From NCBI GenBank assembly GCA_010093605.1, contig MU004181.1, positions 2,790,001-2,854,000 of the forward strand: a stretch of DNA of 64,000 nucleotides. Direction: 5' to 3'. The stretch is from Lophium mytilinum (taxonomy: Eukaryota). A model generated the notes under the pieces. The model was given only the letters and a program-made list of their open reading frames with translations. It made no database searches and was not told the DNA's origin. Made by a program: the position numbers and the translations under genes. Positions 24,380 to 45,277 of the stretch are shown in pieces; the stretch's first letter is position 1, and every line of letters begins with the position of its first letter.

Positions 24380-25352
24380 GATGGATTTTATCGATCGAAC
24401 GCAAGATAGCCTCTGGGTGAGAGACTACGATGGATTTTCTGCTTCCCTAGCCTGTTGTGCCGATGAGATGTGGTGCGATGTCAGAAAGTATGAGGAAACA
24501 ATTGACTGGCAGCGGTGAAAATGTTCCCCATGACGGTGCTTAAGTGTACGGTGATAACAATGTCCTCCTAAGACATCAAAGTTGAGAGTAAGCGAAGTTC
24601 TTAGGACATTGTGAATGATCTTGTCTGCTTTGTTCGTTTTGTCGTAAAGTGGCACGATGTGTTGTCCAATGAACAGGGTGATGAATGAATGACTTGCTCG
24701 CGCGCAGTACCTAGAGACGACGAAAAGACGAAAACCTAGCGAATGACGTGTGGGAGGTTATAAGTAAGTTGACGGTTGGAGGTTCAAATAAGTTCCAGAT
24801 GAGTTGGCGTCCCAAAGTTGCCCGGCGAATCAGAACGCAGAAAGCTCTCAACGAACGAGCGTTTAATAGATATTCAGTCAGCGTGACAGGCGACGGAATG
24901 CTGCAAAAGAGTACTTACGCGCCTCAATCTCTAAATTTCTCCAAGTTTGGATTACATCGCTGCTACGCATTTGTAGTAGGACTAGTATGAATTTAGGCCG
25001 CAAGACAAACGTAAAGCTACTTACTACACTATCTAACATCCCTTTTTTTCTCCACTGCCTTCGAATACTTACATTTCAGAGGATGTGCGCCGCTGTGCCT
25101 GGCAGTCAGGACGATTAGTCTTCCGACTCTCTGCCACACTCCGAGAACTCATCCTGACGCAGCACCATAAAGCAGCACTACATTTTGTGCATGAGATATC
25201 ATGACTACAGCGGGCTGAGCATAACATTTCCATCCCTTTCATACTCATCGAATCCAGATCATAGGACTCAGTCCGCCTGAACCCATCTATACGCCCAAAA
25301 CTCCGCTTCCAAAACTCCACAGCAATATTGACCCACGAAAACAGACCCCTCC

Positions 25353-26027
25353 TCATCTCCGATTTCTGACATTGAACGGACTCTCCTCCGCCGCCTTATA
25401 CCCATCGAATGACGCCAAGCTCGTCAGATACAGCGCCACGAATCTAACCAGCATATCCATAACGCCTGGTCCGCCAAAGCCCCCCAAGCTCTGGCCCCAC
25501 GACTGCGCAACAGGCCGACTCGGTGCATCCGCTCCCCCGAGCGTATATCCCTTGGACTGGAACACGGCCGCAGTCTTCCCAGGGCCCTTTGCGGCATCCG
25601 CGGCGGCCTTGCGGACGGCGGCTGTGAGGGCGGGAGGATTTGCGCCGCGGATGGTGTCGACGACGGAGCCAGATTTGAAGATTAGGAAAGTGGGCATGCT
25701 GTAATGTTCTTGTTAGTAGAAGTTCGTGGGATGGGTAAGTAGTGAAAGCTCATAGTTGAGGTTGGCGGCGAACGCGGAAGAGACATCCAGAATTACGTAC
25801 GCTGAAACTGAGTACTTCTGCGCAACATCTTGCTGCGCGTCGACATCTACCTTGCAGAAAGCTACACGTCCTGGCTTTGCTTCTGCTGTCGCGAGCTTGT
25901 CGAATACGGGTGCGATGGCTTTGCAGGGACCGCACCAGTCCGCATGGAAGTCAACAATAACATAGGAGTTCGAGGTCAGGAGAGTGTTGAAGTGCGCAGA
26001 CGAAGTGACGATAGTGATCTTCGACAT
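25353..26027 (-). CDS. Thioredoxin with C-terminal extension, 2 exons
   Basis: [23 protein letters not shown]; intron 25699-25800 (GTACGT...CTAAC...CAG); about 80-aa tail with a hydrophobic helix. Confidence 0.9.
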
Positions 26028-26342
26028 GTTTGCTAGTAGGTGTGGGGTTTCTGGGAGATCTCATGCGGGTTGAAGTGGTTTGACCACATTGCGCGAGGTA
26101 AGCTTCAAGGACACGAATCAGCTAGATATCACGTGCTACTTTATCCCGAGTCATGAACTCAACACCACCACTCCTGGTTGATAACGACTTATCGTGAAGC
26201 TTTACACTCTTCGCTGACTTTTTTTCTTCACAAAACCCCAAACGGGAACAATTCAATGTCTCTAGACCTTATAGCCTAGTACTGTATATCTTGCCACAAC
26301 CTCATACTATTTCCACATCCCATACTCTCCAAGACCGCAACC

Positions 26343-27356
26343 ATGACCTCAAAAGCTTCATTTATCGCCGGCCTTCCAAAAGCCGAGCTCCACCTCCACA
26401 TCGAAGGTACCCTAGAGCCAGCCCTCGTCCGACAACTAGCGTCCCGCAACAAAATTCCCATCCCCGACGCCATATCCTCCCTAACATCCACCTCTTCCGG
26501 CTACACCTTCAACGACCTCACCTCCTTCCTAGCCGTCTACTACCCAAACATGGCCGTCCTACTCACCTCCACCGACTTCTTCGATATGGCCTACGCCTAC
26601 CTGACCAAAGCCCACTCCCAGAACGTCATCCACGCGGAGATCTTCTTCGACCCGCAAGCGCACACGTCACGGGGCGTGCCATTCTCCACCGTCATCAGCG
26701 GCCTGCGCCAAGCAATCATCAAAGCAGAACGAGAACTGGGGATGAGTGCGAGCTTGATCATGTGTTTTCTCCGCGACATGTCGCCCGAATTTGCGATGGC
26801 GACGCTCACTGAAGCACTGCCGTATAAAGACTACATCATCGGCGTCGGTCTCGACTCCGACGAACGCCAGAACCCGCCGGCCAAGTTTGCGGCAGTGTTT
26901 GCAAGAGCACGGCAGGAAGGGTGGTTGGTGACCTGCCACTGCGACATCGATCAGCAGGATAGCATTAAGCACATCCGTCAGGTGTTGAATGAGATTCAGG
27001 TTGACCGGATCGATCACGGGACGAACATTGTTGAAGATGCTAGTCTCGTGGAGTTGGTGAAGGAGAAGAGAATTGGGTTAACGTGTTGCCCGGTTAGTAA
27101 TTCCGTTGTTACTAAGGACTTCAAAGGGGAGGAAATTTTGCAGCTGTTGCGGGCTGGGGTGAAGGTGACGGTGAATTCGGATGATCCGGCTTACTTTAGG
27201 GGGTACATGAATGAGAATCTAATGAAGACGATGGACGAGACAGATATCACGAGAGAGGAGATTGTGCAGTTGCAGCGGAATGCATTTGAGGTGGCTTGGA
27301 TTTCGGAAAGAAAGAGAGAACGGTTCTTGGGGCTGTTAGATAGTCATGCAAAGTAG
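26343..27356 (+). CDS. Adenine/adenosine deaminase-family amidohydrolase, intronless, atypical active-site motif
   Basis: LPKAELHLHIEGTLEP, EIFFDPQAH, CFLRD, RIDHG, CPVSN, NSDDPAYF; HCDIDQ sits where HAGEE is expected. Confidence 0.9.
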   Translation: MTSKASFIAGLPKAELHLHIEGTLEPALVRQLASRNKIPIPDAISSLTSTSSGYTFNDLTSFLAVYYPNMAVLLTSTDFFDMAYAYLTKAHSQNVIHAEIFFDPQAHTSRGVPFSTVISGLRQAIIKAERELGMSASLIMCFLRDMSPEFAMATLTEALPYKDYIIGVGLDSDERQNPPAKFAAVFARARQEGWLVTCHCDIDQQDSIKHIRQVLNEIQVDRIDHGTNIVEDASLVELVKEKRIGLTCCPVSNSVVTKDFKGEEILQLLRAGVKVTVNSDDPAYFRGYMNENLMKTMDETDITREEIVQLQRNAFEVAWISERKRERFLGLLDSHAK

Positions 27357-27621
27357 GTCCGTCTTCGTTGATTGGCACTTGGATTACTCTCTGAGATAAG
27401 TACCCTGGGGAAGCCTATTCGTCGACCAAGCCATGCCTATATGAAAGCATTCCCTATGCTTACATCGACGTTCGGAAGGAAAGAGCCTGTACGCCAGCCA
27501 TGATGCACGCCGTACACCTTTTGCAATACCCTAACCAATGCCCATAATCGCCCATAACCCAATACACTGTCATATACACGTTTCCCAAAGACCTCCAGCT
27601 CCGCTTTTTGTAAGCGACATA

Positions 27622-29221
27622 TCACCGCCTCTTCATCTCATACACGTTCTTTCTCCACCTACCCTGCCCGTCCCCACTTTCTCTTCTCATTTGCACCTCT
27701 GTCTTGAACTCTCGTTCCACCACAATCGTATTCGGCGGCGGGGATCCCATCGCCCCCTCTTCGTCCATGTCTTTCTCCCGCTCCTGCGTCTCGACCTTAT
27801 TCCAAAACTCTGCCGGCTTCGCCTGCGTTATCCCTTCGCGTGCAAGCCCGAGCCCGTCTGTTGTGAGCTCTTCTTGCGAAGTTGATGGGGGTAACGGGAG
27901 CCAGCGGTTGGGGGATTCGTCACCGAGTACAGGGCGTCCGCTGAGGGAGATAGACGGCACCGTGAAGCGCGAAGGACGAGAGCTGGATTGTTCGGTGGGC
28001 TTGGTTTTGGAGGAAGCTTCTTCCTTTCGTAGTTTTCGGACCATGTGGTAAATGATTGGGAGATTGTTGCATAAAATACCACCCAGCGGCTCATAGACGC
28101 TGTATGCACCAAGGGGAACAGCCGCCCATGTAAAATCAGGGTCGCCGTGGTTCAATACGACTCGTAATCTGAGGCAGGAGACTACGCAGGTGCTGCGGGT
28201 TGGTCGGTTAATTTGGGACGTTCTGACATATCAAAAACACGCATGTCCATGAGAGCGAAAATGAGAAGGGAGAGAACGTACGCAAGGCCGATGGAGAATA
28301 TGAAGCAGAGTGCTATCTTCTTGTTCCGGGGAAGTTGTAACCGCAGGATGACTGGGACCGGTAACAAGAAGACCCATATGTCGGTGACCAGATTTGAGAT
28401 ATTGGTGAAATACGTAAAGGTATCTGGGAAAGGGTGTCAGTTTCACACTAATTATCTAATTCAGAGATGTTAACGGCTGACCTATGTTTAGGCATTTTCC
28501 CTTTACTCTGTCATCCCAGTACGCATTGATCGGAATACAGAAGACCGCCCAAGCGACCGTTATGCCAATGCCCCATGATAGGACGAAGGCGGCCGTCCCA
28601 AGGACGACGCGTCGGAAAATGGGTTGCACGAAGACCCTATAGTAAAATGCTAGGATGGCTAACTTTACAGTAGCTAGAGCAATGCTTCAAATCAGTCAGC
28701 GTAGCTCCGTCAAGTAAATGGTAGAATAATGTGCACCCACTCGTAAAAGTGACTTAGAACATAATCCCCTTTGCGGAATGTCATCAGATCGTACGCTGAC
28801 ACGGCGGTCACATGGCGACCCTGTAGCATAGCCATGTAAGTAGATAGACTACGTGTAGGGCATATGGGAAGTGCCTACCATACCATGAGGAGGTCCATAT
28901 CCGAGTCCGGAAGCACACTCGCCCACTAGACATATCTACTCCTGTCAGTATAATGTCGGAAATTCTATACACCATAACATGGGTTTATTGATCTCAGCTC
29001 TTTCAAGAAATGTTAGAGGCACGTACTGTTGCGAAGGTGATCAGATAATCATCCAGAGTAATCCCGTTTCTTCCTGCCTTCTTCGCCCATAGTCTCAAGG
29101 CGGTCGTGATAATAGAAACGGGAATCGGCACTGAATAGGCCCAATTTATTGCAGTGGCGCGACTGTCGTTCTTGTGGAGTTCTAGCCACGCGAGCTTCTC
29201 CGGCGTGAAAGGGCTAGCCAT
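27622..29221 (-). CDS. PTH11/SAT4-like integral membrane protein (fungal rhodopsin domain), multi-exon
   Basis: TALRLWAK...ITLDDYLI, HGMGRH, VKLAILAFYYRVF, FCIPINAYWD, LLPVPVILRLQL, EPLGGILCNNLP; no CFEM domain seen. Confidence 0.85.
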
Positions 29222-30870
29222 GCGCGCCAAGCTACACAAAAGATCGTGATCGAATCAACGAGCACAGAAAGCTATACGAATGGGAAAAACAAGGTTAACA
29301 GTGACGCAGAGAGCGGGACAGTCTCTTGGTAAAGGTCAAAGCATAGCCCTCGTGACCAACATGTCGAAAGGCGTGTTCGAAGACCGGAGGTTTGCAAACG
29401 GCGGCGCATTCGCAATGTAGCAGGGCGTACTGACTACACTTATTACGGAGACGGAGGGGAAATCGCCATCGAGAGTCGAGACGGGAACTACGGCCGGGGC
29501 TCTAGGTGCTGCCAGACCTTGGTTTGCTCGACCCCCATGCAACGCAGTCGCGTTCAAACAAATGGCGGAATCGAACGATCGTTAAAAAGGCCTGCATTTT
29601 TGTGTCGCGCCTGGTAAGAGCAAAAGGTAACGGCATGATTGGGTGAGAAAGATGTCTCGCAAGGGTGGCGCCGCGGATACGACGGGTAGGGTTATATGAA
29701 TGCCCAGGATAGACGAGCAGGACCAAGGGCGAGCTGCCTGTTTTCGGTCGCGAGCCTGACCAGGCGGCGGCATTGGGATTGGGCCCCTGGAAAGATGCTG
29801 TTGCACTACATCTGCCGCATAAATTAGGCTGCATGTGAGAAACCGGCAGCACTGGTGCGGAGCCGGTCAGAGAAGGCCGACCGTCCGGCGGTAGCTGGGC
29901 TCGGGAAAGCACGCAAGCGGTGAGTTGTACATACAAAGGTACAGTGAGGCTGTTATAGGTGGTGACGACTTTGTTCATCGCGAGCTGGGTTAATGCGCTT
30001 CGATGCCTTTGGTCTCTTCGTAGATCAAATAGATGGCAATGCTGGATCAAACTGCCATCGCGCTCCACATGAAGCACCCGAACCTAGCTCTGTGCGTCCC
30101 GAGGGATTGAGGAGGATGCATTAGCATGGTGAACCTGGGATCGAGCGAGAGAGGTTGGTGGTGGGCCAATGCGTCGGGCATTCGATTTCTTAACGCCACC
30201 ACCGTAACATCCCGTCCCTCCGATCCGCCTTTTGCCCAGCTGCTCCCGTTCATACGTTTGTATCTCTATGACAAGTCTTTAGCCTCATACAGCTGTGCTG
30301 TAGCCAGCGACTCCCAAGCCCTCTAAAAGGCTTCCGTGAACGCTGGCGAACTCGGTATTTGTTTGTTGCATTCGTCCGTTGATTAAAGCGGGATTTTTCT
30401 TAGCGGCTGTCAGCTTTGTGAGGAAAGAGGGGTGCAAATCCTCTGCGTGGGATGATCCCCGTGGGATACTACTCTCAGACTGCAGAACGACTGGTGCTCA
30501 TCGGAGGGAGGCTAAGGTGGACTCAATGCGCCGTCACCCCGGTCCAACGTCCGTTAGACTCCCTGGCTCCAATCTCCACCACCTTTTAATATGTGACAGG
30601 GAAATCTCCAACTGTGGATTCAAAGAACTCGGGTGTTTATGACGAGATAGGAAGTCCGGGATGAAGCTGGGAACAAGACTGCGGAATGTTCCATAGTTGG
30701 ACTTGATGCCTTAATGCGATGAAACGCTTGAGGGTGCTTGGTAGGACGAAACACGGGGCCAAAACGGGCTCTAGAATACTATATACAGTCGAAGAGAATC
30801 CCTTCTATCTGAATCGAGACTCGTACTTCTGACCGAGTCCGATCACTCAAAATTTATTCTTCTGAGCTCT

Positions 30871-33014
30871 TTACACCGGCACTTTCGCCGCAACACTCTT
30901 CCACCAATTACATCGGTCTCCACGGCCCCCTTCCCAGCTTCTGGCATTCACCAATTTGAACGAGTTCGTGATTCCGGGCTCCAGCACCACATTGTATTTG
31001 AGGTGATCAGTCACCACAACTGGTGTGACGACGCCCCCTGTCGTATTCAGACTCATCATGTTTGGATTTTGTGGAGTGTATTTAGGCCAGTTAATCTGCC
31101 CATAGCCTCCCACGGGAACAGTCGCGTTCGCTAGTCCGTCTTTCGCGTCGGCAACTGAAATCACTGGCGAGTTTTGCGTGATGAAGCTACCCCAGATCTT
31201 CTGGAAGGCGTGGATAAAGGATGTCCCCGGCACAGAGGCACCATCACTCCAGTATGCACTCAAGTCGGCGCCATGGTAAGCGGGTACCACGCTGTACTGA
31301 TACTTCCAGGCTTCAGAGAATGCCTCCGCGAGCCAATATGACGGGCACACGAACGTGGATTCTGCGAATACGTTGAAAAGTCTCTGTTGTTGCCCTGTCG
31401 CAAAACCAGATTGGTTTACTGCAGTGGGTCCGGTGTCTCCCAAAGTGTCGAAGACGGGGTCTTTAGGATCCACAGAGGAGTGATCACCTGCGTAGGCATA
31501 CTCGTCTTGCAGTGATGAGACATCAGACTTCGTGAACGACGGGAATGTGGTATCTGTTGATAATCAACATCTGGAGCACTGCTTCTAGGAACTTCAACGA
31601 CTGCTTACCCACGTAGTCCAGGAATCCTTGTTCCGTGGTGACGTCGGGCGGGCTAAGAGGCACGCCTTCGTTCGCGTTGTTCTAGACAAGTCAGTATCAA
31701 AGAGACGTATTTGAGGGTACAGTTCTTACCCCGGAGAGAATACGCTTTCCCTGCAGCTTTTTCGTCAAGAGCTGAACGGTAGGCCGCTGTTGGATGAAGC
31801 TTCCATCGATAACGGGCAGGAAAGCAAAGGTACCAAAGGCTCCGGATTCAGAGACAGTCCCACTAGCGTTTTGAAGTGCAGCAGTGTCTGCCTTCACTAG
31901 ACATTGAAATACTGATTTCGCCGAGGCACACCCGGCAGCTTTCGCAAATGCTTTGTAGTGTGTAACCGGGACTGGGTCGCTGTATGTGTAGACGCTCGGC
32001 ACCTGATTATAGTCAGCAACTGAAACCTTATCTCGATAGATCAAGCTCAGGGATAGTTACCCATGGGGACGCTGCGATAATCTGACACGAATTAGCTAAC
32101 AGCCAAGACCATTAAAGGACCAGAGGGGCCTACATTTTGGAAAAGAGTCTTGTCCTTGCCCCCATATGCCATTGCTTGGTACATAACAGCTCCAGCTCCA
32201 GCACTCTCGCCTCCAATGGTTACCCTGCTTGGATCTCCGCCGAATTTCTGAATGTACTTCTGAACCCATTGGAGGGCGAAATTCATGTCCAGTAGCCCAG
32301 CATTGAGCGTACCCGACGCCTTGACGTCTGGAGAAGACAGGAAACCGAATGCGCCTAAGCGGTACTGAATCACGACGGTGATGAAGTTGCCACCATTTTC
32401 TTGTATCATCGGACCCTGGCAGCTGTTAGAGAACTGGAGGGATAACCATCCAAAAGAACTTACGGCATTCAGTCCCTGCGCTGAGAAAAGGGCGTATCCG
32501 CCTCCATCTACAAACGATTAGAAGGGGCTTGTGAGATTTGCGTCAGAGAACCCACGAATCCAAAAGAAGACGGGCAGATTCTTCGCATTTGGCGGCGCAT
32601 AGACATTGAGGAATAAGCAGTCCTCGTCGCCAGGCCCCGAGTTGAATCCGTACGCAGGAGGAGTACCAGCGGCACCGGACTGAGGGCAAATTGGTGGGTC
32701 TTCTGCTGCCGAGATGATTGTTGCGTTCTTCACAGGAGCTTGGGGTGCTTGCCAGCGCAGTTTGCCGACAGGCGCGGCCGCCTTGGGGGTTGTGTTAGTT
32801 TTGAAAAACGCAAGACAGAGGCGGTATTTACATAGCGAATGCCCTTGAAAACATTGACCGAGTAGTTGGAATCCAGATAGCCCTGATACTTGGAGTAGCC
32901 AAGATCCACCACCGGCGACGCGACAGCACGCGCAGCAGCAGGAATGGGCTCTGCTAAGACAGCATTGAGTGACGAAAGCGCACCGAGAGTCCTTAGGAAC
33001 GATGCGAATTTCAT
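30871..33014 (-). CDS. Secreted type-B carboxylesterase/lipase, multi-exon
   Basis: Signal peptide MKFASFL..., VVDLGY, FKGIRY, EDCLFLNVY, QYRLGAFGFL, FGGDPSRVTIGGESAGA (catalytic Ser), YHGADL (catalytic His). Confidence 0.92.
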
Positions 33015-33769
33015 CTTAGCCGGCCCGGGTGCGTCCAACAGCTCAAAGACTCCCAGGAAAATCAGTCGAAGGTGTAGAAGGAAACAGGAACTAGGCCCAT
33101 GGAGAAGATGCGCAGAGATGTACCCTGCGTGCAGTGGTATCCCAGTTCGTCCGTTCCGACGGGTCTCCGTCCCACATGGTGATTACACGACCCTCAGTTC
33201 GCGCGGGCAGGGAGTGGCATCATGTCCCTGTGCTTCTTTCCTGCAGGTCCGAGGCGAAGGAGCTGGGCGTCGGTTGTGTAGATGCATGCAGAAGGTCTCA
33301 TGAATCGCACGTCGGGGCGCCCATCCGTGCAGGGAACCAAGCCGCTTGATGGACGGAGCTTGCCTTCTTTCTCCTCTTCGAAGATAGTCGCGTCCGCATC
33401 CATGCCCTCGGGAGTGCACAAGACACAAGGGCTGACCAAGACAAGGATCAGCTGTATGAAACTACTCACGTGACGTACTTACCGTCCTAGGTTTAGCGAA
33501 CTTTTAACTAGTTCTATGTAGAGTAGAAGTCGCTGAAGCCCTTTCGATCCAGCAGATACAGTCCTATTGCTACCGGAACAATCGCTAAATGTACGGACAA
33601 CTCTATGCAATTCCACACAGGCGGAGAGAAGAGGCGATAGCGAGTATATATTATTATCGAGTCTAAATCAACCACTACTATCCAAAAAATCGCTACTCCA
33701 ACCTTTACCTGCCCTGTCTTTCTGTAGAATCAGTTCTCCCTCTTCCCTCTATCAAGCATCTGTAGTCTT

Positions 33770-36228
33770 CTAAGCAAACATGGCATGTTCCCATCCGAAC
33801 CACTTATTCATCCTCTTTCCCATAGATCTTATCATGACCGAATCAATCTTTGTAACGGGATGTGGTTTGTGAAAGACGATACGACCCTCCCATCCCCGAG
33901 GGTTACCCTTGATAGGCTCGAAAACCACAGCGGAACCACCACCATGGCTGGCAGAGAAATGCAGCTCAGCCATAGCATTAACAAAGTCGTTCCATTCGAC
34001 GGACTTAGAGGACTCCTCAGTGATGCTTGGATACATCATCGATATGATGTCCAACGTCCGTTGGCGCACGGTGATCTTGGGCTGTTGAGATTGCCGAGGG
34101 ACGTCTTCTGCTTCACGTATGATCTTGATCGGCTCCGCAGTCTCATTGGGCCGAGTCTTGACCTTGGCTTTCGATTCTGCAGATCGCGATTCCTTCTCTG
34201 TGTCAGCCTTACCCCAGAAGGACTGAGGCGCTTTCGAATCCTCTTCTTCCTTTCGTTGGACTTCAATCAAGACATTCCGCCGCTCTGCCTCGATGGCAGC
34301 TTTGTACTGCGGAGTAGTTTCAGCGCAAAGCACCTGACTATCTTCGTCAATATCTTTTGGCACTGCTTTTCCATACGTGTCGTAAAACGATACGAGAATC
34401 ATTCTCCAGATGGAGTTTTGCATTTTGCGACTTTCTTCCTCGGCCAGTAGCCAATTTCTATTCTTCGTGAGTCCTGGCTGCGGGAGCTCCGAGAACTTTT
34501 CGAGAAGGTTTCCTATCGCGTGGTTTGGGGCCCATGAAAGTTCCAGATCCCGATTTGAGGCCATTCTACACCTGAAATATCTGAAAGCTTTGCGGTCATC
34601 AGTCACCTTCATGATGTCTCGTGCTCGGTATAAAGGTCGATGTAACCGAACCATCCCCAACATGTAGGCATTGGCAGAGAAGTTGGACAGCTTTTCGTAC
34701 AGCAGAGAGTCGATGCGAGCCTTTTCCTTCGGCGGACTGTTGAGAGATGCTCATCCAGAAACGCAAAGACCATTTCGAAGGGGTAGCGCCTTTGCGAATC
34801 GGGATCTCCCTGCAATTGGAGCAAGCACCAATGGAGGGGATCTCGCTCGTACTCGTCTTCTATAGGAGTCGCCTGCTTTCTACGGAAAAAGAACTCGCCG
34901 GGCGAAGAACCACGTTCAGGTTCCCAGATGTGGCGGAAACCAGGCCTCTGCGGGACAAGCGCAGTTATTTGTTTTGCCCTGCTGTGCATCAAGTTGACAA
35001 GTACAAGCTCCAAAGCACCCAACGCGTCTTCGTACCTAGGAGGTAGGCGCTGTCCAGGATGAATGCTGTCTCTGAATCGAAGGTACTGCTCTTGAACATT
35101 CCTGCACTCCACTAGAACCCACTGCCACCAGAGGTATTCGTGGAAGTCTTGAAAGATTTCTCCAGCCAATCCGATGCCCACGACATTTGGGTCTCGGAGA
35201 GCTGGATTCTTATAGACTGCACAGTCTCTCACTATCTTGAGGTGCCGACTTAGGTATTTGGAATCCGTCTGAAGAAGCCACAAATGGTCACCCATCGCTT
35301 CGACTCTACTTTGAGCAATAGCCAGTAATGCATCAATGTTGAAGACTGGCGGGGCCGAAAAGGGTTGGTGGGTAAAGGGAGACCAGACTTCCAAGCTGCC
35401 AGATTGTTTGAAGCCTCCTTGAGTGAGCTCTATCCATTTGCTCGAAGACCCTGGCTTTCCGAGGTCAACACCATCCAATATTTCGGTGACAAGATTACGC
35501 AGGAACTTCATGAGGCGACCCTGAGCTTCCATGATAAGCCGTCCCCTAGGAAACCCAATAATGTCTGCCCTATGAGCAGCAGCCGCGTCGAAGTTGGCCG
35601 TCTCTCCATAATGTGTTCCTTGGACAGACACACAGAGATCTGAGAATTCTGGGTACATGAATCCTTGGAACCATGGCACAACAAATTGACGGCTGTCATA
35701 GGGCGCCCATTCCTGGGGATGGTAATGGGCCCTATTGTGGAGAAGGCTAAGGAAAAGGGCCGGGTCCGATTTGAGGCCTTCGACACTTAGGTATGGCAGC
35801 AAGAATGTCTTGCGTTCTCTGCGACCTTCCTTCCAGGACGGGAAGTTAGCCATGTATCGGAACGTAAACCACTTATGTTCGCACAAGGTAGGGTTTGCTT
35901 TTAGTATCCATGCTTCGCGTTTATCGCGGCTTCGTTTCTTCCAGCGGCTCAGGATTGTGTCTCCATGTGACGCACAGACTTCTTGCAGGTATTTACGGTC
36001 CTCGAAAATCTGGGTTTGATAGTGCGATATCATCTTTTTGACCTCTTCCGCAGCTACTCGAGTCTCGTAGGCCTGGCGGTCTACACTCTGTTCCTCTCGC
36101 GTGTACCAAAATTCTTGACAGTCTAGGCAGTCGCATGGCGGATCATAAATGGAGAAGGTAGACTCTATAAAACGCACATTGTCTTCGCCGGGGGCTTTGC
36201 GCATTGGGAGGTGGTTATCTACACGCAT
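33770..36228 (-). CDS. Large uncharacterised fungal protein with a C-terminal HicA-like module; split by a 1-nt frameshift at about 34740 (pseudogenised allele or sequence error)
   Basis: The 566-aa and 297-aa ORFs join into about 820 aa if one base is restored at CTCTCAACAGT (…EHLS-NSPPKEKARIDSLLYEKLS…). C-terminus WNDFVNAM…GGGSAVVF…FHKPHP. Confidence 0.75.
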
Positions 36229-36843
36229 TGTTGCAGAGGTTAGGGGTTTATGGTCGGGCAAGGGGGTATGATGTTGAGACGGGATGAACTTAAAAAGACG
36301 GAAAATCAATCCTCCGGCGTTAAGATAGTATTCACGCCACCTTATTGGACGAAAATAGTAACTAAGCCTTATAGGAGCAGACTTCGGCTGCTGCTCTCTG
36401 TCAATTTCTATTATTTGTAGCTTTCTTATTTGATCGTTCTTCTTTCGAGCTACTGCATGGCGATAACACTCGTCCTGTATATGGATACTTTAATGGTAAG
36501 CGTAGAGTTGTGATTCATCTTGCGGTCAACAGCTAATAAATACTTAACCCAGTGCACTTCATTGCCCACTTAGATCCGATACGAGCGATGATAGAACTAG
36601 TCTTTCTGTTGATTGCAGGCTGTAGCGTCTGATATTAGGTGGAAGACCACTCTAATATACAGGAATGGACCCAAGTTTGCTACCGTGATTGCTTGCTGTG
36701 GTGATTGTCCTAATCTAACACTTTCGGGCACTGGGAAACTATAGAAGTTTGGCGGATACCTCTCAATATTTTTTAAAAGCCCTAAAACTACCTCCCACTT
36801 TCTCGCCATGCCACATTTTGAATCGAAGCCGTTCCAATATCTT

Positions 36844-39112
36844 TCAACCCCTTCTCACAGGCAGATCCCCCAATTCAACCCCCTCCTCACCACGGAAACT
36901 TGCCCTTCTTACGGCACCCCGGCCCTGCTCCCCAATACCCGCCGTTCTCTTCCTCCCAGCCCCAGCCTCTCCTCTCTCCGCCTCATCGCTCTCATCCAAA
37001 ATGGCATCTGCATCACCCGCAGCTTCCTCAGCACTAGAAGCCTCCGCCTCAACAACCTCCCCAAAGTTGCCCCCCACACTCTCCATCGTGAACGGGCTCG
37101 CAGTCGGACCATCCAGTACCGCCAACTCGCTCGCCTTGAACCACCTAGGCAGCACCCACGTCCTTAGTGGCACAAGCAACAAGATAAACACCGGAAACCC
37201 GATCGCCGCAATCGTTTGCGTAATCGCAAATGTAGCCCCAAAACCGGTGAGTTCAAGAAGCACAAACGCCCAGATAGCACCGCGGCGTTCGATGCTCTTC
37301 AGAGGGTCAGACCGAGGCGTGAGGGAGGCATCTTTAGCGAGAAAGATAAGTTTGAGGGTGATCCCATTAGCTTCGAGGGCTTGGACGCCCATGACGAAGA
37401 ATAAGCCTGCTAGCACACCCTGTGGGATAAGGTGGATAACAATGAGTAAGGGACCTGTCATTGTTCCGAGAGTGAGGAGACCCTGGGCGAGATTTGATAC
37501 ACGCTGCTCGACGACGTGGTCGGTCACGCGGCGAGTGTGCCCTTTGTGCTCTTCGTCTTCGTCGGAGACAGTGCGGGTTACGCATAGTGCTTGGGTGTGG
37601 AATGGTGCTTGAGGGATGAGCCCGTTTGGGAAGGGGATTCCTAGTAATCCAGCGACACCGGTGGTGAGACCGAGCAGGAAAAGGTCCCAGTGGAAGCCGG
37701 CCGGCTTTCGAAGTGGAAACTCAGTACCTTGGGCCATGAGAGAGGAAACTGGGAATGGTCAGAGTTGAACCTATGTTGCAGTGCAAAAGAGTGGTATACC
37801 GTTATGGTCAAAATAGAAGAGAATCGTGAGAAGAATAGCGAAGGGGATAGCAAGGAACACGTCCCCAACGTTGATGTCCCAGAAATGAATAAACCAGGAA
37901 CGGTCGGTGGTAGGATAGAAAGCTTTGCTAATTGGTAAGGTGAGCAGGTCTACCCCTCGCATCTTCCCGATGTGGACGAAGCCGGTAAAGAAGATGACTG
38001 TCAAAGGCGTGCCGTAATCCTCGATAAACTTGCGAAAGTGTCGCTGGAAGAGGTTACTATGGCCCACGACACCGCATCCGTAGGCTACCATGAGAACCAG
38101 AAGAGCGATCATAATGGCAAGATAGGCCGATTCGCCATCAGCCTCCCATTGACGGGTCAGAACCTGGACTCCCTTCTGGAGGTAAATAGCTGCAACGTAG
38201 AAGCCGAAGATATCACAGGGGAATCGAGTGACATAAGTGAGAGCATTGCAAGCATTCGTAATAGCCAGAATCCAGTGCATAACCAATGACCATCTGTAGC
38301 GATTAGTGGGAGATCCTGAGGCGGAACTCTGCACTTACAGTCCGATCCAGCACATGAAGGCAAAGTAGTTGGTCCCTTGCGGAGTAATAATGTCGTATAC
38401 TGTATAATTAAAGACGGTGATGGGACCTGTTAAAATTAGTGTGCTAGACGGAGACTATTGGCCCGAAGCATCTCACCCGTCACGCCGACAATGACAAGAG
38501 GCTGAGCGGCTGCTATAGAGAAAACCACAGCCCCTAAAACTGACGCTAGGAGGACTTCGTTGACGCCAAAGCTCATCTTGGTTTTGGCAAACATGTCTAG
38601 AGAGAACGCTAAAGCAGGGAGAATACTGGATTTCGATTAGTCGTTGGAGCTCAATGCATTGTATGCTCAGAAACGGAAGATAGCGCTGTCTTTTGAACTC
38701 TTTGATGGGGGGCATGTCGAGAAGTCACGAGAAAGATGAATGAAGCGTGTACGCTATCCTTTGTTGGTACATACTTCGCAAAATACATGTATACGGTTGC
38801 CGGTACGACTCGGTAGTCCCAAGCGTCCGTCCAGTCACTGAGATAGTACGGAGCTCGCCTCCTTACATCGTTGATCATGCCCCGGAACAGCTGGACCTTC
38901 CACCAATCTGTCTTTCGAGAGCTCGTTGTTCGGGCAGACGCTCGAGTATTGGCTCGGTTTAGACCATCATCACTGCCGGTGACTTCGCGATTCTTCGCGA
39001 TGAAGGGCATCCGGTGCTGCCATGGTTTCTTGGACTTTCTCGAGCCCGTCGAGGAAGGTATTGAAACACCATGGCGCTGTGTAGGGACAGTCAAAGTCTC
39101 GGATGGCGCCAT
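36844..39112 (-). CDS. BOR1: SLC4/HCO3- transporter family, boron transporter, multi-exon
   Basis: DVRRRAPYYLSDWTDAW, YMYFA, AQPLVIVGVTGPI, LTILFYFDHN, LRKPAGFHWDLFLLG, NGLIPQAPFHT, VVEQRVSN. Confidence 0.92.
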
Positions 39113-39771
39113 TATGGACAACTCGAGCGCAAAGGGACAGGTTTGCAACGCTATCAATGCGCCGGTGGATGAAGTGCCATGGAGGTGATTGGTTCCGTTG
39201 AGAAGGAAACCCGAAAGGCTTTAAGGAACAAAAGTGAAGTAAGTGAGGAGACGCAGATATGCAACATACCTATATGTGGGGAAGAGCTTTGTGGGGCCAA
39301 CCGGTTCGAGGCGCTTGGCACGCGTCATGAATCGGCGAATCGGCTTTGTTTCCGCGCTGGTGATTTTGTGCATGAGGTGCCGCGGAGAGGGATTGAATTA
39401 GCGAAAGGGAAAGAACCACAGTATGTAATTGTGGACAAATTATAAGTATCGAGGCCGACGTGGTTGAGGTTCAACCTTGAACTAGTGCGGAATTTCCCGA
39501 GAGGTGGAACTACACATCCTTTTCAACCTCAGACCAGCTTAATAGTAAATCTACAGTTGCGAATCTCAGCGTGGTTCACTTAACGAACGTCGCAGCAAAG
39601 TTCAAATCGTGGACGCCGCGCAACCAAATCACGGCCTGCAGAAATTTACATTCACAGACCCCAACCTTTGCACAGCAGCCCTCCCGCATGGTATCTACAG
39701 CCCCTCGCACAACTAGGATATGATTCAGACAGAGAGACGCTTCAAGAAAGAAATGATATACTAGGAAGCGC

Positions 39772-42700
39772 TCAGTACGGCGGCGTTCTCGCCCCACCAC
39801 TACCAACATCATCCTCTTCGCCATTACTATCATCCTCCACTCCAATCGCATCCAACAAGCTGTGGAAGTCTACCCTGCCCTTGGCATCTTTTAGCCTCGC
39901 ACCATCTCGACTGCCACTCTCTGATCTCCTGTCGCCTCTTTTCAGACTGCGACTCTGTCTTAGGCTACGCACACTCCCGTTCGAAATCTCTCTCTTGCCA
40001 CCATGTGTGTTCTTTCCGGGCGCGGTCCTTGGCCTCCCACTTGCACCCTGTGTAGATATCGGGGCAGGTGAGACTGAATTTGCCCTCAAGCTTGGCGGCA
40101 AGGGAGGAACCGGCGGCACTGCATCTCTTTGGCCCCCAAAATCTTTGGTTGACGTGCTCACAGGCGGCTGCGTGCTCGATACTTTTGGCGTCGCACTACC
40201 ATCGCTATTCACACCGTCACCGCCGCCAAACGTGGCAGCGTCGGCTTCACGTTCACGATCGTTGGCGGTAGCATAGCTCATCTCGCTAACGGATACCATG
40301 CTTTCGCTGCTTGTGTCATCGTCGTATCCCGCAGAGCCACGGACACTGCCGTGCGCCGTGTAGCTACTCCGGGGTGCCCTTCCCTCCAGTACGCGCTTTA
40401 GATCCTCGACACGTACAGCAGAATGCACGCTTGACGAACTGAGACCACTGCGCATAGGGCTACCGTTGCGATTTGGGGAGCTGGAATGACCAACGAGACC
40501 ATACGCTGTAGAAGGCGGGCGCGAATGGTGTCTAGCGGTGCTACTATCGAGGGTACCGTTGGGAATGGATACCGCGAGAAGATTGTTAGGCCGTGCCGTA
40601 CCACCGGTAGTGCCAGTACGGGAGTTGGATATGGACGCCGAGGAGGATGAGTCTTTGGTTGTAGAGGCGATGCAAGCGGCTTTAGACCAGTCGGCCATCA
40701 TTTGGTCCTTTACTTTCGTAGGAAGTGTACTACTATTGTCCAATTGGAGTGTCCGTGTAGTCTTGATCATAGAAGCAGATCTCTGGCGACTAGTTTGGCG
40801 AGTAGGGGGGCCGGGAGAGGCTGGAGGACTAGAAGGTGGCGATGCGAGAGATGTGGTATAGCCGTCTGATATTAGGTTTACGAGTGCTTCTCTATTATCA
40901 AATGGCTTGAGCGCCTCGGTTTGAACTAAGTCGGGCGAAAGTTTGCCCAAGCCTGGATATGTGGCAGGTAGCTCAATCTGATTTAAAGGCACCGGAGGGA
41001 TCCGCACTGAACTTAGCCACAGCCCTGTATCGTTTCTTCGTGTGATTTCGCTGTGCAGTGCTCTTCCTACCGGGGATGTTTCAAAGTCGAATGCCATACT
41101 GAGGGCCCAGAAGTAGCCGTGAACAAGACTGCCCAGTCTGATCTTGGACTCCGGGACCTCGACAAGCTGGATATCTTCTTGAAGTCGCATGATCATCGGT
41201 AGCCCTGATTTGACACTGTTGACACCCAATCTCTCGATTAGGTTGGTAAGAAGGAGGTGCAAGAGCAGGATGTCAGGTTCAGAATCAACGTATTGATGAG
41301 CATTCTCATAGATCGCAAGATGGAGCATCGTAAGAAAGGTCGCTTGGGATCGTTTCACGGCCTTTTCCCGGTGTGAAGCATTGGAGACTGCCCTCTTCGC
41401 GAGATTGGCGCTGATACCGTTCTCCTTCTCTTTGATCTCGGCATTGGCCGCGCGACTTTCTTGCACTACTCTCAAGTTTTTCTTTCTCAGCTCTAGATTG
41501 AGCCAGGTGAGGAGTGCGTCGGCGTAAGCCTTTCTTACTTGTCCATTTGGATCGTGTATTAGCCATTGAGTGCCCTCCCAGACTCCTACTTCCACCTGTC
41601 TTCGGTTGTCAGAGGTAGATGAGCCATCTGGTTTCTTCGAATTTGCAACGATTAGTATCTCTTTAACAGCAGCTAACGCCGTAATCCTTGCAGTCTCAAA
41701 AGAGAAGAAACTGTCCACATAACCGGTCTTCTCCTGAAGGTTTGCGGAATTGGCAACAGCATCAACAGCACCAACGGGGTCTTCTATTGCTGCTGCGGTT
41801 GTGGGAATTTCCGATTGCGACGAAGGTTTCAGTCGTGAGAGGACAGCTCTCAGCATGTCGGCGACCTGGTCCGTGTAGTAAACATGAGTCGCTAGACTCG
41901 CCATGCATTTTTGAAGAGTGGCAAGCAGTTGAAGACGATAGTCCGAAGGCATTTTGACGAGCTCCATTACAACTGCACCTGTTAAGCTTCCGGACGATGT
42001 CGGTCCCTTCTCTTTCAACGACCCGACGGCGTCTGCTTGTTGGGGGTGCGGGTGGATATTAGAGCCATGTCCTCCTAGTTGAAGCAGCAGCAAGGTATGC
42101 GATATTAGGCCAATCAAGACATCCATGACACTCAGACCAATGAAGTTGATCTGAGAACTCAGGAGATAGTCGATGATAGTTGCTAGGACAAGTTGTCTCT
42201 CGATGTCTTCCTCCTTGATTGGGCTTCGCACAAGGGTATCCATGGCCCCAACGAGGATTACGAATCGATCTTGGACTGAAGCCCAGCCGCAGGTCATAGC
42301 GAAAAGAGTAGTGGGCCAGCTGCCGTTATGGCACGGGCGATTGTCGTGGGTTTTGAAATGATCGTGAGGTTTGACTCGGCTGGCGATGAAATTCAGTACT
42401 ACCGATGTTGCGAGCCGGAGCTGGTTTCGATTCACTTCTTTGAAAATGTTCCTAAACGCCTGCAGTGCCACAACTCCCACTTCCTCTTCTGCTATCTTGT
42501 CTGCGTCTTCAGTGGTCCCTGAAGCAGCAACTGGGTCACCCTCGTCGGCGTCGGCTGTCAGCACCGTGGAAATACTCTGTCGTCGTCGGAGAGTGGCTTC
42601 CCTCTCCAGATCCCCTTTTTCTCCTTCTCTGCGCACCAATTGGTCCAAATATTCCCCGTTGTCCGAATATATATTGAGCAGGATTGCGGGTAGAATGGCG

Positions 42701-43360
42701 GCCAATTGTCGGCCAGTCTCCGATCCTAGAGACTCTGAGGATGCGATTCCTTTTATCGCCTCGAGGCCAGCTTTCCGAAATCTGATAGCCACGGGCCAGC
42801 TGATAGGGGTCTTTGCATGCGACACGGCCTCCTTGGACGCGAATTCGGCATACAATCGCACTGTATCTTCATACTGCTTTATGTATTCCTGGTCTGCCGC
42901 AAGTGTCGCAGGGTCCTGGTGTGCGCAGAAAGTCTCGAATGTTGGAACCGACTCTTCCACCATAGTAATGTCATTGGACCGAAGGATCGTACGGAGTATG
43001 CTCAGCACGGAACCAGCATACAAGGGGAGGTCGCGGGGGCATTTTTCAATGATCGCTTTTAATATCTCGAGAGTGACTTGTACGTTGCTGCGGAGGGACA
43101 CTTTTAGCAAAGAAGCGCGGATTTGACAGTATCAAACGCGCATACCCTAGGCGTCCCTTCCATACATCGCTGGTAGCCCGTTTGTCCAGAAAGTCGCCGA
43201 CCTTCTGCAGCTTACTGCGTCGCGTGCTGGCATAGTAGAGGAGGTAGCTGAGCTCGCTCGAGTTTGGCTTGACGTCGGTGTTGTTCTTCTGGAATTTGGG
43301 ATAGCACTTCAGGACCAGGACCTGGTGTTTTGGGCGACATGCCTGCCGTGCAGCGTGCAT
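39772..43360 (-). CDS. EFR3: EFR3 (PI4-kinase plasma-membrane anchor), 2 exons
   Basis: CRPKHQVLVLKCYP, SSELSYLLYYASTRRSKLQKVG, intron 43088-43145, NFIGLSVMDVL, LATHVYYTDQV. Confidence 0.93.
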
Positions 43361-44563
43361 GGAAACCGATATTGAGCAGGGTTGACGAACACGGCGGAAA
43401 TGTGAGGGCTGGGGCGCGAGGGGCAAGTAGAGTATTTAGGGCTCATAAGGAAGGGCAGAAGGATGAGAGCTGGCACACTGGTGAAAGTAATTGTGGTGAT
43501 TGCCCGCGAGCGTCCCGTCAGCCCCAAAGCCCTCTCTCACCTCGCCAAGCACAGGGTGCACGATGACGACGTCCGCAGACAGCCGCGAGTCAATATCAAC
43601 ACCAACTTTCTCCCGGCTGTTCCAACGGCTGCTTTCTATGTCTATCATAGCTAGCGACCACCAGCCGAAAAGATTTTTCTCGGCATCGCCAGTGCTGTGT
43701 TGAGATAGTACGCGCACACTTTCCTAGGTCAACGTCGTGTTCACCACATGCATTATGCTGTCCACCGCAATCCTCCAGCTAAATGTCCTGGTCCCTCACC
43801 GATGTTGATACATGGAACTAGAGCTCGTTCGAGCTCGTGCCATGCTCCGTTGAACGATCATGGCAGTCCAACATCGGACAACTTAAGCAGTGAGTTATCA
43901 GGCTTGCTGAACTAGCCCTTCACATTATTCAATACGTACCAGACGCCTCGAGCAGTGCCAGACAAGTACAGTAAGATTGATTATCTCAAACATACAAAGT
44001 CCTATGTCGAAACTACGAACATGTAGATAGCTACTTCTTGTTCAACGGAACCTAAAAGGCGAACCTAAGAGCATTGGCCATACAACTGACTGAAGATCTC
44101 TCTGATATGATGGGTTGTGCTAATATACGAATTGGGCAATTCCCTTTGGTAAAAAGCTTGTCATCATCGAGCCCCACCAAGGTTTCATGGTCGGCAACTC
44201 ATGGTTTTGACAATGTGGTTATAGAGTTCCAAAACATAGATTTCACTACATTAGACAGATCCCGCCTATTGGATGTGCCCAATCGTCTGACACTTGACAC
44301 TTTTATCCCTATGACCACCTCTTCCCTAGATATAATCTCTAATATGACACAACAATACGAAGGCAACTTGGGGGAAAACTTAGTCACGTGTAGATTAGAT
44401 CAACCGCGGATCTAGCGTGCACCTCTCCAACCACCGCCCACCTACTCGAATAGTCAGGTACGCAATTGAAGAGGCTGTACTTCATTCCAGCCCACTGAAC
44501 TCCATAGGTCCCGAGAGATTCCACGGAAATACGCTTTATAAGCTAATGCCCTCGAAGAACATC

Positions 44564-45277
44564 ATGTCTTCATCTCTCATAACGCTCCCCACCGAACTAC
44601 GTCTTCAAATACTCCGATACGCCCTGACGCCCATCCGTTTCGACTGGTGGACCCACAAATCATTGCCCCTCATCTCGGTCGACGGTCGCGGTATTCCCGC
44701 TTGCCACAAGACCCTGAAGAAACGCGTCGCCGCTGGCAAACTCCCAAGTAGCTTCTTCTACGTAAACTCCAACGCTCCCTACTTCCAAGGCACTAGCCCC
44801 TCGGACATTCTTTGTATATGCAGAAAAATCCATGCCGAGGTGGAGGAGATATTGTATACCGAGTTCGCGCTGCTGTTCGTGGCCAACAATACCAAGCGAT
44901 TTGCGAACTCGATCAGCCCTCGTGCGAGCAGGCTGGTGAGACACGCGGTCATTCAAGTGCCTCTGTATGCCGTGTGGGCGCAAGATAGAGGCTCAGCCTG
45001 GTTGGAGTTGGATCAGCGCGCGGCATGGCTAAGAGAGTGGGCTGCGCAATATAAGGGTGTACTCAATGTGGTTGTCGTCGTCCAGCTGCTAGGAATGAAT
45101 CGTCTGGATTATGATGGCCAAGACGATAGAATAGTGCGTATGATCGTGGATCTTATCAGTATTCTCAAGGGTGTGCCTGCGCTGGAAGTCAGGAAGGATG
45201 GTGACTTTGCGACTCCAGTGAAGGATCGCCTTATTCTGCTTGCTATAGAGGAGGTCAATCAGTGGAAGAACCTTTAA
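44564..45277 (+). CDS. Hypothetical protein with an N-terminal F-box-like motif
   Basis: SLITLPTELRLQILRYAL and ILCICRKIHAEVEEILY, a pattern common in ascomycete F-box-like hypothetical proteins. Alternative ATG at 44546. Confidence 0.65.
   Translation: MSSSLITLPTELRLQILRYALTPIRFDWWTHKSLPLISVDGRGIPACHKTLKKRVAAGKLPSSFFYVNSNAPYFQGTSPSDILCICRKIHAEVEEILYTEFALLFVANNTKRFANSISPRASRLVRHAVIQVPLYAVWAQDRGSAWLELDQRAAWLREWAAQYKGVLNVVVVVQLLGMNRLDYDGQDDRIVRMIVDLISILKGVPALEVRKDGDFATPVKDRLILLAIEEVNQWKNL

Follow-up and report, generated by a model that had tools for sequence, protein, structure and literature searches.

A frameshifted gene on the minus strand

The window that we analysed, a stretch of 64,000 nt, carries on its minus strand a gene of about 820 codons, for which the best database match was from Lophium mytilinum (99% identity). 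The gene consists of 496 N-terminal and 322 C-terminal codons, and their reading frames are separated at 34739-34740. The N-terminal frame (34741..36228) runs from an ATG at 36226-36228 to ...FLDEHLS and shares 49% identity with residues 1-494 of P0004, an intact homologue, and the C-terminal frame (33773..34738), which is still open and is closed by a stop codon at 33770-33772, is 38% identical to residues 496-811. With tblastn, P0004 residues 1-494 were placed at 36228->34741 in frame -2 and residues 496-811 at 34738->33776 in frame -1. Two bases (34739..34740) thus stand where the homologues have one codon, corresponding to P0004 residue 495, which amounts to a net deletion of 1 nt. The tblastn search with P0004 found a single copy of the gene in the window, and no tandem repeats were found in 33,000-37,500.

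Near the N terminus lies a CxCxxC motif, CDCLDC (36118..36135), as the earlier note had described; the family consensus at this place is PPCxCxDC. A second conserved element, KVKTRP (34148..34165), is located in a variable linker rich in Lys and Glu, and both Lys residues of its family consensus KxKTRP were invariant in 52 of 52 sequences in alignment A5. The N-terminal frame matched no Pfam family at E<=10 and nothing in NCBIfam or PADLOC, and an Atlas search with the N-terminal region gave a top score of 0.88, which we regard as a lead only. The minus-strand translation of 33770-34750 contains the C-terminal peptide RQRTLDII..., SVEWNDFVNAMAELHFSASHGGGSAVVF, GRIVFHKPHP and IDSVMIRSMGKRM; the peptide quoted in the earlier note was indeed found at 33773-34078.

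When translation from the ATG is followed past the frameshift, it reads an out-of-frame tail of 43 codons and a stop at 34609-34611 (34609..34740), so that the predicted product has 539 aa and is without the HicA-like domain at the C-terminal end of the gene. One contig of run X1, with a length of 2,567 nt, was exactly coextensive with 33672..36238 on the minus strand and matched it with no mismatches, gaps or splice joints. We consider this a transcript-like unit; the RNA nature of X1 is a presumption, no run with matching contigs being on record as RNA. Contigs of the DNA runs X2 and X3 extend beyond both ends of this unit. These two runs may also be the source of the assembly. The frameshift sequence was identical in the contigs of X1, X2 and X3, which represent three runs from two studies, with no gaps against the window.

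The public gene model for this locus (P0003, 780 aa, annotated as a hypothetical protein) contains a 116-nt GT..AG intron at 34737..34852 on the minus strand. A comparison of P0003 with P0004, P0017 and P0022 indicated that this intron restores the frame by deleting 38 conserved codons and 2 nt (YERDPLHWCLLQLQG...FLDEHLS), and the intron sequence is retained in the X1 contig, which has no splice joint there. The public model therefore masks the frameshift behind an intron that is unspliced in the sole transcript-like contig, which is relevant to genome annotation. An uninterrupted reading frame, as expected for members of the fungal ycfA/Ipa family, is missing in the window gene. Because of the net 1-nt deletion and because the locus is apparently transcribed unspliced, translation started at the ATG should end after 539 aa and leave out the domain. 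The frameshift in the Lophium mytilinum genome uncouples the HicA-like domain from the N-terminal part. As a correction to the earlier note's picture of a large protein with the fold at its end, the gene is split and does not form one open frame. Since the downstream frame is fully open and homologous, the break is recent. With its 322 codons intact, the C-terminal frame may still be in use, for instance through an internal start.

The 92 stop-to-stop ORFs of at least 75 aa in 25,000-45,000 contained no HicB-type Pfam family, in agreement with the earlier note. A HicAB type II module has an adjacent hicB gene and a small stand-alone toxin, and here the domain ends a gene of about 820 codons. 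The flanking genes are ordinary and non-defence. A Pfam search of both frames detected no HET, HeLo or NACHT domain in the window protein and gave a weak HicA match alone, so the protein has none of the HET, HeLo, NACHT/NB-ARC or similar domains by which fungal NLR/HET-type proteins are recognised.

Relationship of the C-terminal domain to HicA

The last 113 aa matched the Pfam family HicA_toxin (PF07927) with E=9.2e-4 and 19.7 bits, over profile positions 1-54 of 58 and model residues 40-99, a score below the gathering cut-off of 27 bits. Among the sequences of alignment A1, 36 of 52 matched PF07927 at E<=0.01, with a best value of 3.8e-7; for further relatives, 22 of 38 matched at E<=0.001 and seven exceeded the 27-bit cut-off. 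Many database relatives of the window protein also carry a precomputed PF07927 assignment. Profile-profile comparison by hhalign of 260 fungal domains with 29 bacterial HicAs gave a Prob of 85.5% and an E of 5.7e-6 over 51 columns; this bacterial set comprised 29 of 30 loci, L031 being left out as a partial match. An earlier hhalign run against 17 close E. coli-type HicAs had given a Prob of 0.2%. Searching PDB sequences by phmmer with the domain yielded two weak matches, neither of them a HicA, and the whole-family profile gave no PDB match at E<=10. The best score in an Atlas search with the domain was 0.83, to fungal clusters.

The AF2 model of the domain (pLDDT 91.8) shows the alpha1-beta1-beta2-beta3-alpha2 order of a dsRBD-like fold. 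Based on AF2, VIA-align and Pfam, the HicA-like core (33791..34006, minus strand) consists of a helix at residues 40-49 of the 113-aa model, strands at 52-58, 61-66 and 78-81, and a helix at 91-105. It is preceded by a fungus-specific N-terminal extension (34007..34078) of two short helices, residues 17-26 and 31-35, with a conserved M-[FY]-P. When the model was compared by VIA-align with 48,161 PDB representative chains, only four reached Z>=5 and all of them belong to the HicA family: 1whz (Z 6.2), 6g26_E (5.4), 5yrz_D (5.1) and 4p78_D (5.1), with 56-68 residues aligned at an rmsd of 2.4-3.2 A. A second VIA-align inspection listed 1whz at 6.2 and 6g26_F at 5.6, and the next row at 3.3. For a domain this small, a Z of 5-6 is modest. 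No PDB chain was matched by Foldseek at E<=0.001; all E values were above 0.3 and HicA chains appeared at E 0.7-1.9. Of the Pfam and Foldseek comparisons suggested by the earlier note, the former thus returned the expected family, at a score under the cut-off, and the latter returned nothing at E<=0.001.

The domain encoded by the C-terminal approximately 100 codons is truly homologous to the HicA/YcfA fold, and the proposal of a HicA-type fold at the C terminus of a large fungal protein is borne out by the AF2 model, the four HicA chains at Z>=5 in VIA-align and the hhalign result.

Loss of the catalytic histidine in a large fungal family

Both the hmmsearch and the hhalign alignments place the Gly-Ser-His catalytic turn of bacterial HicA on Gly59-Ser60-Ala61 (33929..33937), with the His replaced by Ala. 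In a MAFFT co-alignment E. coli His23 was found on Ser60, one column away from the profile alignments, and the residue opposite is not a His in either case. The column holds His in 29 of 29 bacterial HicAs and in 0 of 260 fungal domains; the fungal residues are Ala (215), Ile (11), Ser (6), Met (5), Glu (5) and others (18). Passages of PMC6159526 and PMC11594946 state that HicA can neither act as an RNase nor be toxic without the His that follows the Gly-Ser turn. In an active HicA mRNA interferase this catalytic His stands at the beginning of strand 2, where the window protein has Ala61. For the fungal proteins the toxin name inherited from Pfam is misleading, since the whole fungal branch lacks the residue by which HicA catalysis is defined.

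The fungal domains share motifs of their own, with FH[KR]PHP and G[KR]RMxKWFGW being near-invariant. F-H-K-P-H-P is located at 33857..33874 and K-W-F-G-W, a fungus-specific end of the last helix, at 33791..33805. Of the 260 fungal domains, 253 have His81 and 258 have His84. In the hhalign alignment, His81-Lys82 is inserted in the fungal sequence and has no counterpart in bacterial HicA, and Pro-His-Pro aligns with the bacterial V-P-x-H; the attribution of F-H-x-P-H-P to bacterial HicA in the earlier note has thus to be corrected. Basic residues are similarly conserved, with Lys/Arg at position 82 in 255, Lys/Arg99 in 245, Arg100 in 251 and Lys/Arg103 in 255 of the 260 domains. Because the near-invariant His81 and His84 could make up a substitute active site, the absence of the canonical His is no proof that catalysis was lost.

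The domain family comprises at least 1,890 clusters at 50% identity (E<=1e-3), and the domain was at the C terminus in nearly all of the 150 matches listed. It is present in ascomycetes and basidiomycetes, the latter including Mycena, and is broadly conserved rather than patchy, with collinearity across several ascomycete classes. Some members are named 'ycfA domain-containing' in the databases. HicA is regarded as a prokaryotic toxin family; in fungi it forms a C-terminal module of at least 1,890 protein clusters. A search for the fungal signature across 185,579 prokaryote genomes returned 34 stretches. Only one of them was confirmed by tblastn, and we judged it spurious, as it falls within another gene and in a different frame. 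Among 123 long homologues, one (P0065) was fused to a PNP_UDP-NACHT-ankyrin NLR; the P0065 entry may represent two merged gene models. A literature search, with supplementary tables that possibly hold PF07927 counts outside its scope, gave no paper on fungal HicA-like proteins and no functional study of a fungal HicA-type module. Four retrieved papers were rejected: in PMC12773724, PMC10483032 and PMC13170202 the matching text was the word 'HiCanu', and the main text of PMC7501697 had no occurrence of HicA.

Interpretation and comparison with known systems

We consider it probable, on balance, that the domain is a non-canonical and presumably RNA-binding HicA-fold module of a fungus-specific and very large subfamily, located in a recently broken gene. 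In this subfamily the catalytic His of HicA is replaced, mostly by Ala, and new near-invariant motifs and the two-helix extension are present. The fungal domain has probably lost the role of a HicB-controlled mRNA interferase, and it would more likely bind RNA or another ligand through its conserved Lys/Arg surface, as a putative ligand-binding module within a conserved multi-domain protein. The question raised is whether the module binds RNA or is a nuclease with a rebuilt active site, and the two invariant His residues are central to it.

The idea of an RNase toxin or immunity effector, put forward in the earlier note, would require that the catalytic His had moved to His81 and/or His84, with the N-terminal approximately 650 aa acting as an inhibitor or sensor as in cell-death and allorecognition effectors. 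The two near-invariant His residues do adjoin the strand that bears the catalytic His in bacteria, a separate antitoxin is absent, P0065 is fused to an NLR, and a frameshifted copy would be in keeping with a costly gene. We nevertheless regard an active toxin as unlikely, since the canonical His is missing in all 260 fungal domains, the window protein is without HET, HeLo and NACHT and has ordinary non-defence neighbours, the family is collinear and conserved over ascomycete classes, unlike typical polymorphic het genes, and the lone NLR fusion is possibly two merged gene models. The bolder version, in which a eukaryotic HicA branch would have built a two-His RNase site from the His-Lys inserted where strand 3 ends and the older Pro-His, the N-terminal approximately 650 aa would restrain the nuclease until a stress or non-self signal arrives, and the window copy would be a disarmed allele, appears less likely still. 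A module for protein-protein interaction or a structural role without nucleic-acid ligand, with the HicA fold re-used as a scaffold, would agree with the loss of the catalytic residue, and the hydrophobic KWFGW, the M-F-P and the two-helix extension could form an interface; the conserved Lys/Arg positions, however, favour an acidic ligand such as RNA, and we hold this reading to be a minor possibility.

It is quite improbable that the gene is unbroken in the organism, the frameshift being bypassed by a true intron or ribosomal frameshifting, or being an error, and the full-length protein being made. Such a reading could draw on the downstream frame, whose 322 codons are open and homologous throughout, and on the GT..AG intron proposed by P0003. 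However, that intron deletes 38 codons which the homologues conserve in frame, the gene-length X1 contig keeps the 116 nt without a joint, and the contigs of three runs from two studies match the window with no gaps. The sequence at the frameshift site, CTC TCA ACA, is presumably not a recognised slippery heptamer, which counts against ribosomal frameshifting. That a small alpha/beta unit converged on HicA by chance, without homology, is hardly credible. The window sequence does fall under the Pfam cut-off, the Foldseek E values exceed 0.3, phmmer and the family profile retrieved no HicA chain from the PDB, and the first hhalign run against E. coli-type HicA stood at a Prob of 0.2%; but seven of 38 relatives pass the Pfam cut-off, one of them at 86 bits, hhalign with the broader bacterial set gave an E of 5.7e-6, and HicA-family chains fill the top four places among 48,161 structures.

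The bacterial and archaeal HicA mRNA interferases (PF07927; 1WHZ, 6G26, 5YRZ, 4P78, 6HPB) have in common with the fungal domain a dsRBD-like fold of one helix, three strands and a helix, a conserved Gly-Ser turn joining strand 1 to strand 2, and a conserved Pro-(x)-His that follows strand 3. Whereas the HicA toxins are stand-alone proteins of about 60 aa with a HicB partner, the fungal domain forms the C terminus of a protein of about 820 aa and has no HicB; its catalytic His is replaced, and it has an extra FHKPHP insertion, KWFGW and the two-helix N-terminal extension. Fungal proteins named 'ycfA domain-containing', 'YcfA-like protein domain-containing' or 'Ipa' are uncharacterised and occur, for example, in Fusarium, Colletotrichum, Hypoxylon, Hortaea and Botrytis. 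The window gene belongs to this ycfA/Ipa family and is collinear with its members, covering 811 of the 815 residues of P0004 and sharing the motifs throughout, from the N-terminal CxCxxC over the conserved central blocks to the C-terminal domain, but its copy is frameshifted and the nearest other member is just 38% identical over the C-terminal part. The fungal-type domain is also present in basidiomycete tandem HicA-like proteins such as P0270 of Mycena capillaripes (514 aa), which lacks the large N-terminal region of the window gene and has three to four tandem domains with [FY][HC]KPH[PL] motifs, matching PF07927 with 86 bits over the repeats.

The C-terminal domain and HicA

The earlier note had described a HicA-toxin-like module at the end of a large fungal protein, and the peptide it quoted is the exact end of the open frame P0001 (33770-34750, minus strand). 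Searching the last 113 aa with the Pfam model HicA_toxin (PF07927) gave a match at residues 40-99 (E 9.2e-4, 19.7 bits), which, however, falls below the 27-bit cut-off. In an alignment (A1) of the window domain and 51 homologues, hand-picked for spread from 120 listed, 36 of the 52 sequences matched PF07927 at E<=0.01, the best at 3.8e-7. Among 38 further relatives, 22 matched at E<=0.001 and 7 scored above the cut-off, up to 86 bits.

The AlphaFold2 model built from A1 (pLDDT 91.8) shows two extra N-terminal helices, a helix at 40-49, strands at 52-58, 61-66 and 78-81, and a helix at 91-105. With Foldseek, this domain model had no PDB match at E<=0.001; HicA chains did appear, with target-normalised TM-scores of 0.65-0.67. 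Based on a second structure search, independent of Foldseek, in which all 48,161 PDB representatives were aligned, only four chains had a Z of at least 5 and all of them were HicA-family proteins (1whz 6.2, 6g26_E 5.4, 5yrz_D 5.1 and 4p78_D 5.1), with E. coli HicA (6hpb_C) at 3.4. A repeat comparison gave 6.2 for 1whz, 5.6 for 6g26_F and 3.3 for the next entry. For a bacterial profile, PF07927 loci were collected from a bacterial phylum in which 38 of 81 genomes had them, and 29 HicA domains from 30 loci were used, L031 being left out as partial. Aligned to this profile with hhalign, 260 fungal domain stretches gave a probability of 85.5% and an E of 5.7e-6 over 51 columns. Homology of the domain to HicA is thus well supported, and the proposed HicA fold was confirmed.

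Reading frames and surroundings of the gene

P0001 overlaps with a second open frame, P0002 (34609-36489, minus strand, ATG at 36226-36228), and together they represent one gene, whose translated sequence includes the previously noticed N-terminal CxCxxC as CDCLDC (36118-36135, minus strand). The best database match was the public gene model P0003 (Lophium mytilinum, 780 aa, 99% identity), annotated as a 'hypothetical protein'; none of the other relatives among the matches listed exceeded 39% identity over the C-terminal part. With the intact homologue P0004 (815 aa), tblastn produced two collinear pieces in the window, residues 1-494 at 36228->34741 (frame -2, 49% identity) and residues 496-811 at 34738->33776 (frame -1, 38% identity). 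At 34739-34740 two bases stand in place of one homologue codon, a net 1-nt deletion. The predicted product from the ATG would comprise 496 native residues and then 43 out-of-frame residues, with a stop at 34609-34611.

P0003 bridges the two frames across the frameshift by a 116-nt GT..AG 'intron' (34852-34737, minus strand), dropping 38 codons (YERDPLHWCLLQLQG...FLDEHLS) that are conserved and in frame in P0004, P0017 and P0022. Contigs of three public sequencing runs from two studies (X1, X2 and X3) aligned to the window with neither mismatches nor gaps; the DNA runs X2 and X3 may themselves be what the assembly was made from, and X1 carries the label 'RNA?', which is a guess. A single X1 contig of 2,567 nt spans exactly 33672-36238, starting 10 nt before the ATG and ending 98 nt beyond the stop, with no joint and no X1 contig on either side. 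It retains the 116 nt of the P0003 intron (34737-34852) and looks like an unspliced transcript carrying the frameshift. As the run contigs match the window and the gene-length X1 contig keeps the frameshift, we take the frameshift to be genuine in the sequenced strain. It is a recent break, since the 322 codons beyond it still form an open frame with homology up to its end.

The N-terminal 496 aa and the next ~200 aa matched no family in Pfam, NCBIfam or PADLOC and nothing among PDB sequences, and an Atlas search with the N-terminal region gave sub-threshold leads only. Ahead of the domain, in a linker of acidic and basic (Lys/Glu-rich) residues that otherwise varies, there is a conserved K-x-K-T-R-P motif (34148-34165, minus strand), both Lys being invariant in 52/52 aligned family members; the motif might serve as a signal for localisation or processing.

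An HCO3-/borate-type transporter (36844-39220, minus strand) and EFR3 (39772-43435, minus strand) are located upstream of the gene. Directly downstream is a carboxylesterase (PF00135) gene (30871-33182, minus strand), which lies in pieces in several frames and is presumably interrupted by introns. Thioredoxin, adenosine deaminase, a fungal-rhodopsin-domain gene and a DUF7730 protein are also neighbours. As had been noted, no HicB gene is nearby: none of the 92 ORFs of at least 75 aa at 25-45 kb of the window belonged to a HicB-type family. Just upstream of the gene, at ~36603-36700, the depth was ~20x that of the surroundings in both DNA runs (3,584 vs 171 and 3,166 vs 136) and many short contigs end there; this stretch looks like a dispersed repeat.

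Distribution of the family

With the domain-only profile A2, 1,890 clusters at 50% identity were found at E<=1e-3, 954 at E<=1e-10 and 136 at E<=1e-30. Among the 150 clusters listed, the domain was almost always at the extreme C-terminus, the proteins being 94-1,137 aa long. The species of the named members are ones that we take to belong to Dothideomycetes, Sordariomycetes, Leotiomycetes and Lecanoromycetes, and in the basidiomycete Mycena three to four tandem domain copies occur (P0270, Mycena capillaripes, 514 aa). Two domain copies are present in P0254 (Fulvia fulva, 1,137 aa), which resembles a family unit and a half. P0065 (Fusarium acutatum, 1,629 aa) combines a PNP_UDP-NACHT-ankyrin NLR (residues 1-813) with a complete family member whose HicA-like domain is at 1547-1601; such joining was seen in 1 of 123 long homologues and could be a real fusion or come from two adjacent gene models merged into one.

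A scan of 185,579 prokaryote genomes did not find the fungal signature peptides, so the fungal HicA-like domains form a branch that is fungus-specific and old rather than recently transferred. The sole confirmed prokaryote stretch with the fungal signature lay out of frame inside another gene and was rejected. Source databases call several members 'ycfA domain-containing protein', and for one short member the name given is 'Type II toxin-antitoxin system HicA family toxin'; the domain assignment is therefore already in databases. No studies of these fungal proteins were found in the article texts searched.

The catalytic histidine

One conserved His in strand 2 of HicA, with a conserved Gly (and Ser) before it, is described as essential for toxicity and RNase activity (PMC6159526, PMC11594946); it is His36 in S. 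pneumoniae, His28 in YpHicA3, His24 in B. pseudomallei and His23 in E. coli. The hmmsearch and hhalign alignments both place bacterial G-S-H over fungal G-S-A. Since this column is His in 29/29 bacterial HicA domains and in 0 of the 260 fungal ones (Ala 215, Ile 11, Ser 6, Met 5, Glu 5, others 18), the HicA-defining catalytic residue is, as judged from the alignments, missing across the whole fungal branch, the window copy included. One His was present among the 260 in the Ser column just before. The proposal of a toxin or immunity effector was not upheld; the built-in inhibitor that it invoked is hypothetical.

Near-invariant in the 260 fungal domains are, in the numbering of the 113-aa model, Trp40 (258), His81 (253), Pro83 (258), His84 (258) and Arg100 (251). 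The main alternative, which we consider unlikely, is that the domain is an RNase with a new active site of two His (His81 and His84), controlled by the N-terminal region. We favour, with reasonable though limited confidence, a HicA-fold module without the HicA active site, probably binding RNA or another ligand, in a conserved fungal protein whose gene was recently frameshifted here. The fungal branch is further characterised by a K-W-F-G-W motif and the two-helix N-terminal extension. In comparison to bacterial HicA, the fungal His81-Lys82 is an insertion, and the fungal Pro-His-Pro is aligned with the bacterial V-P-x-H.
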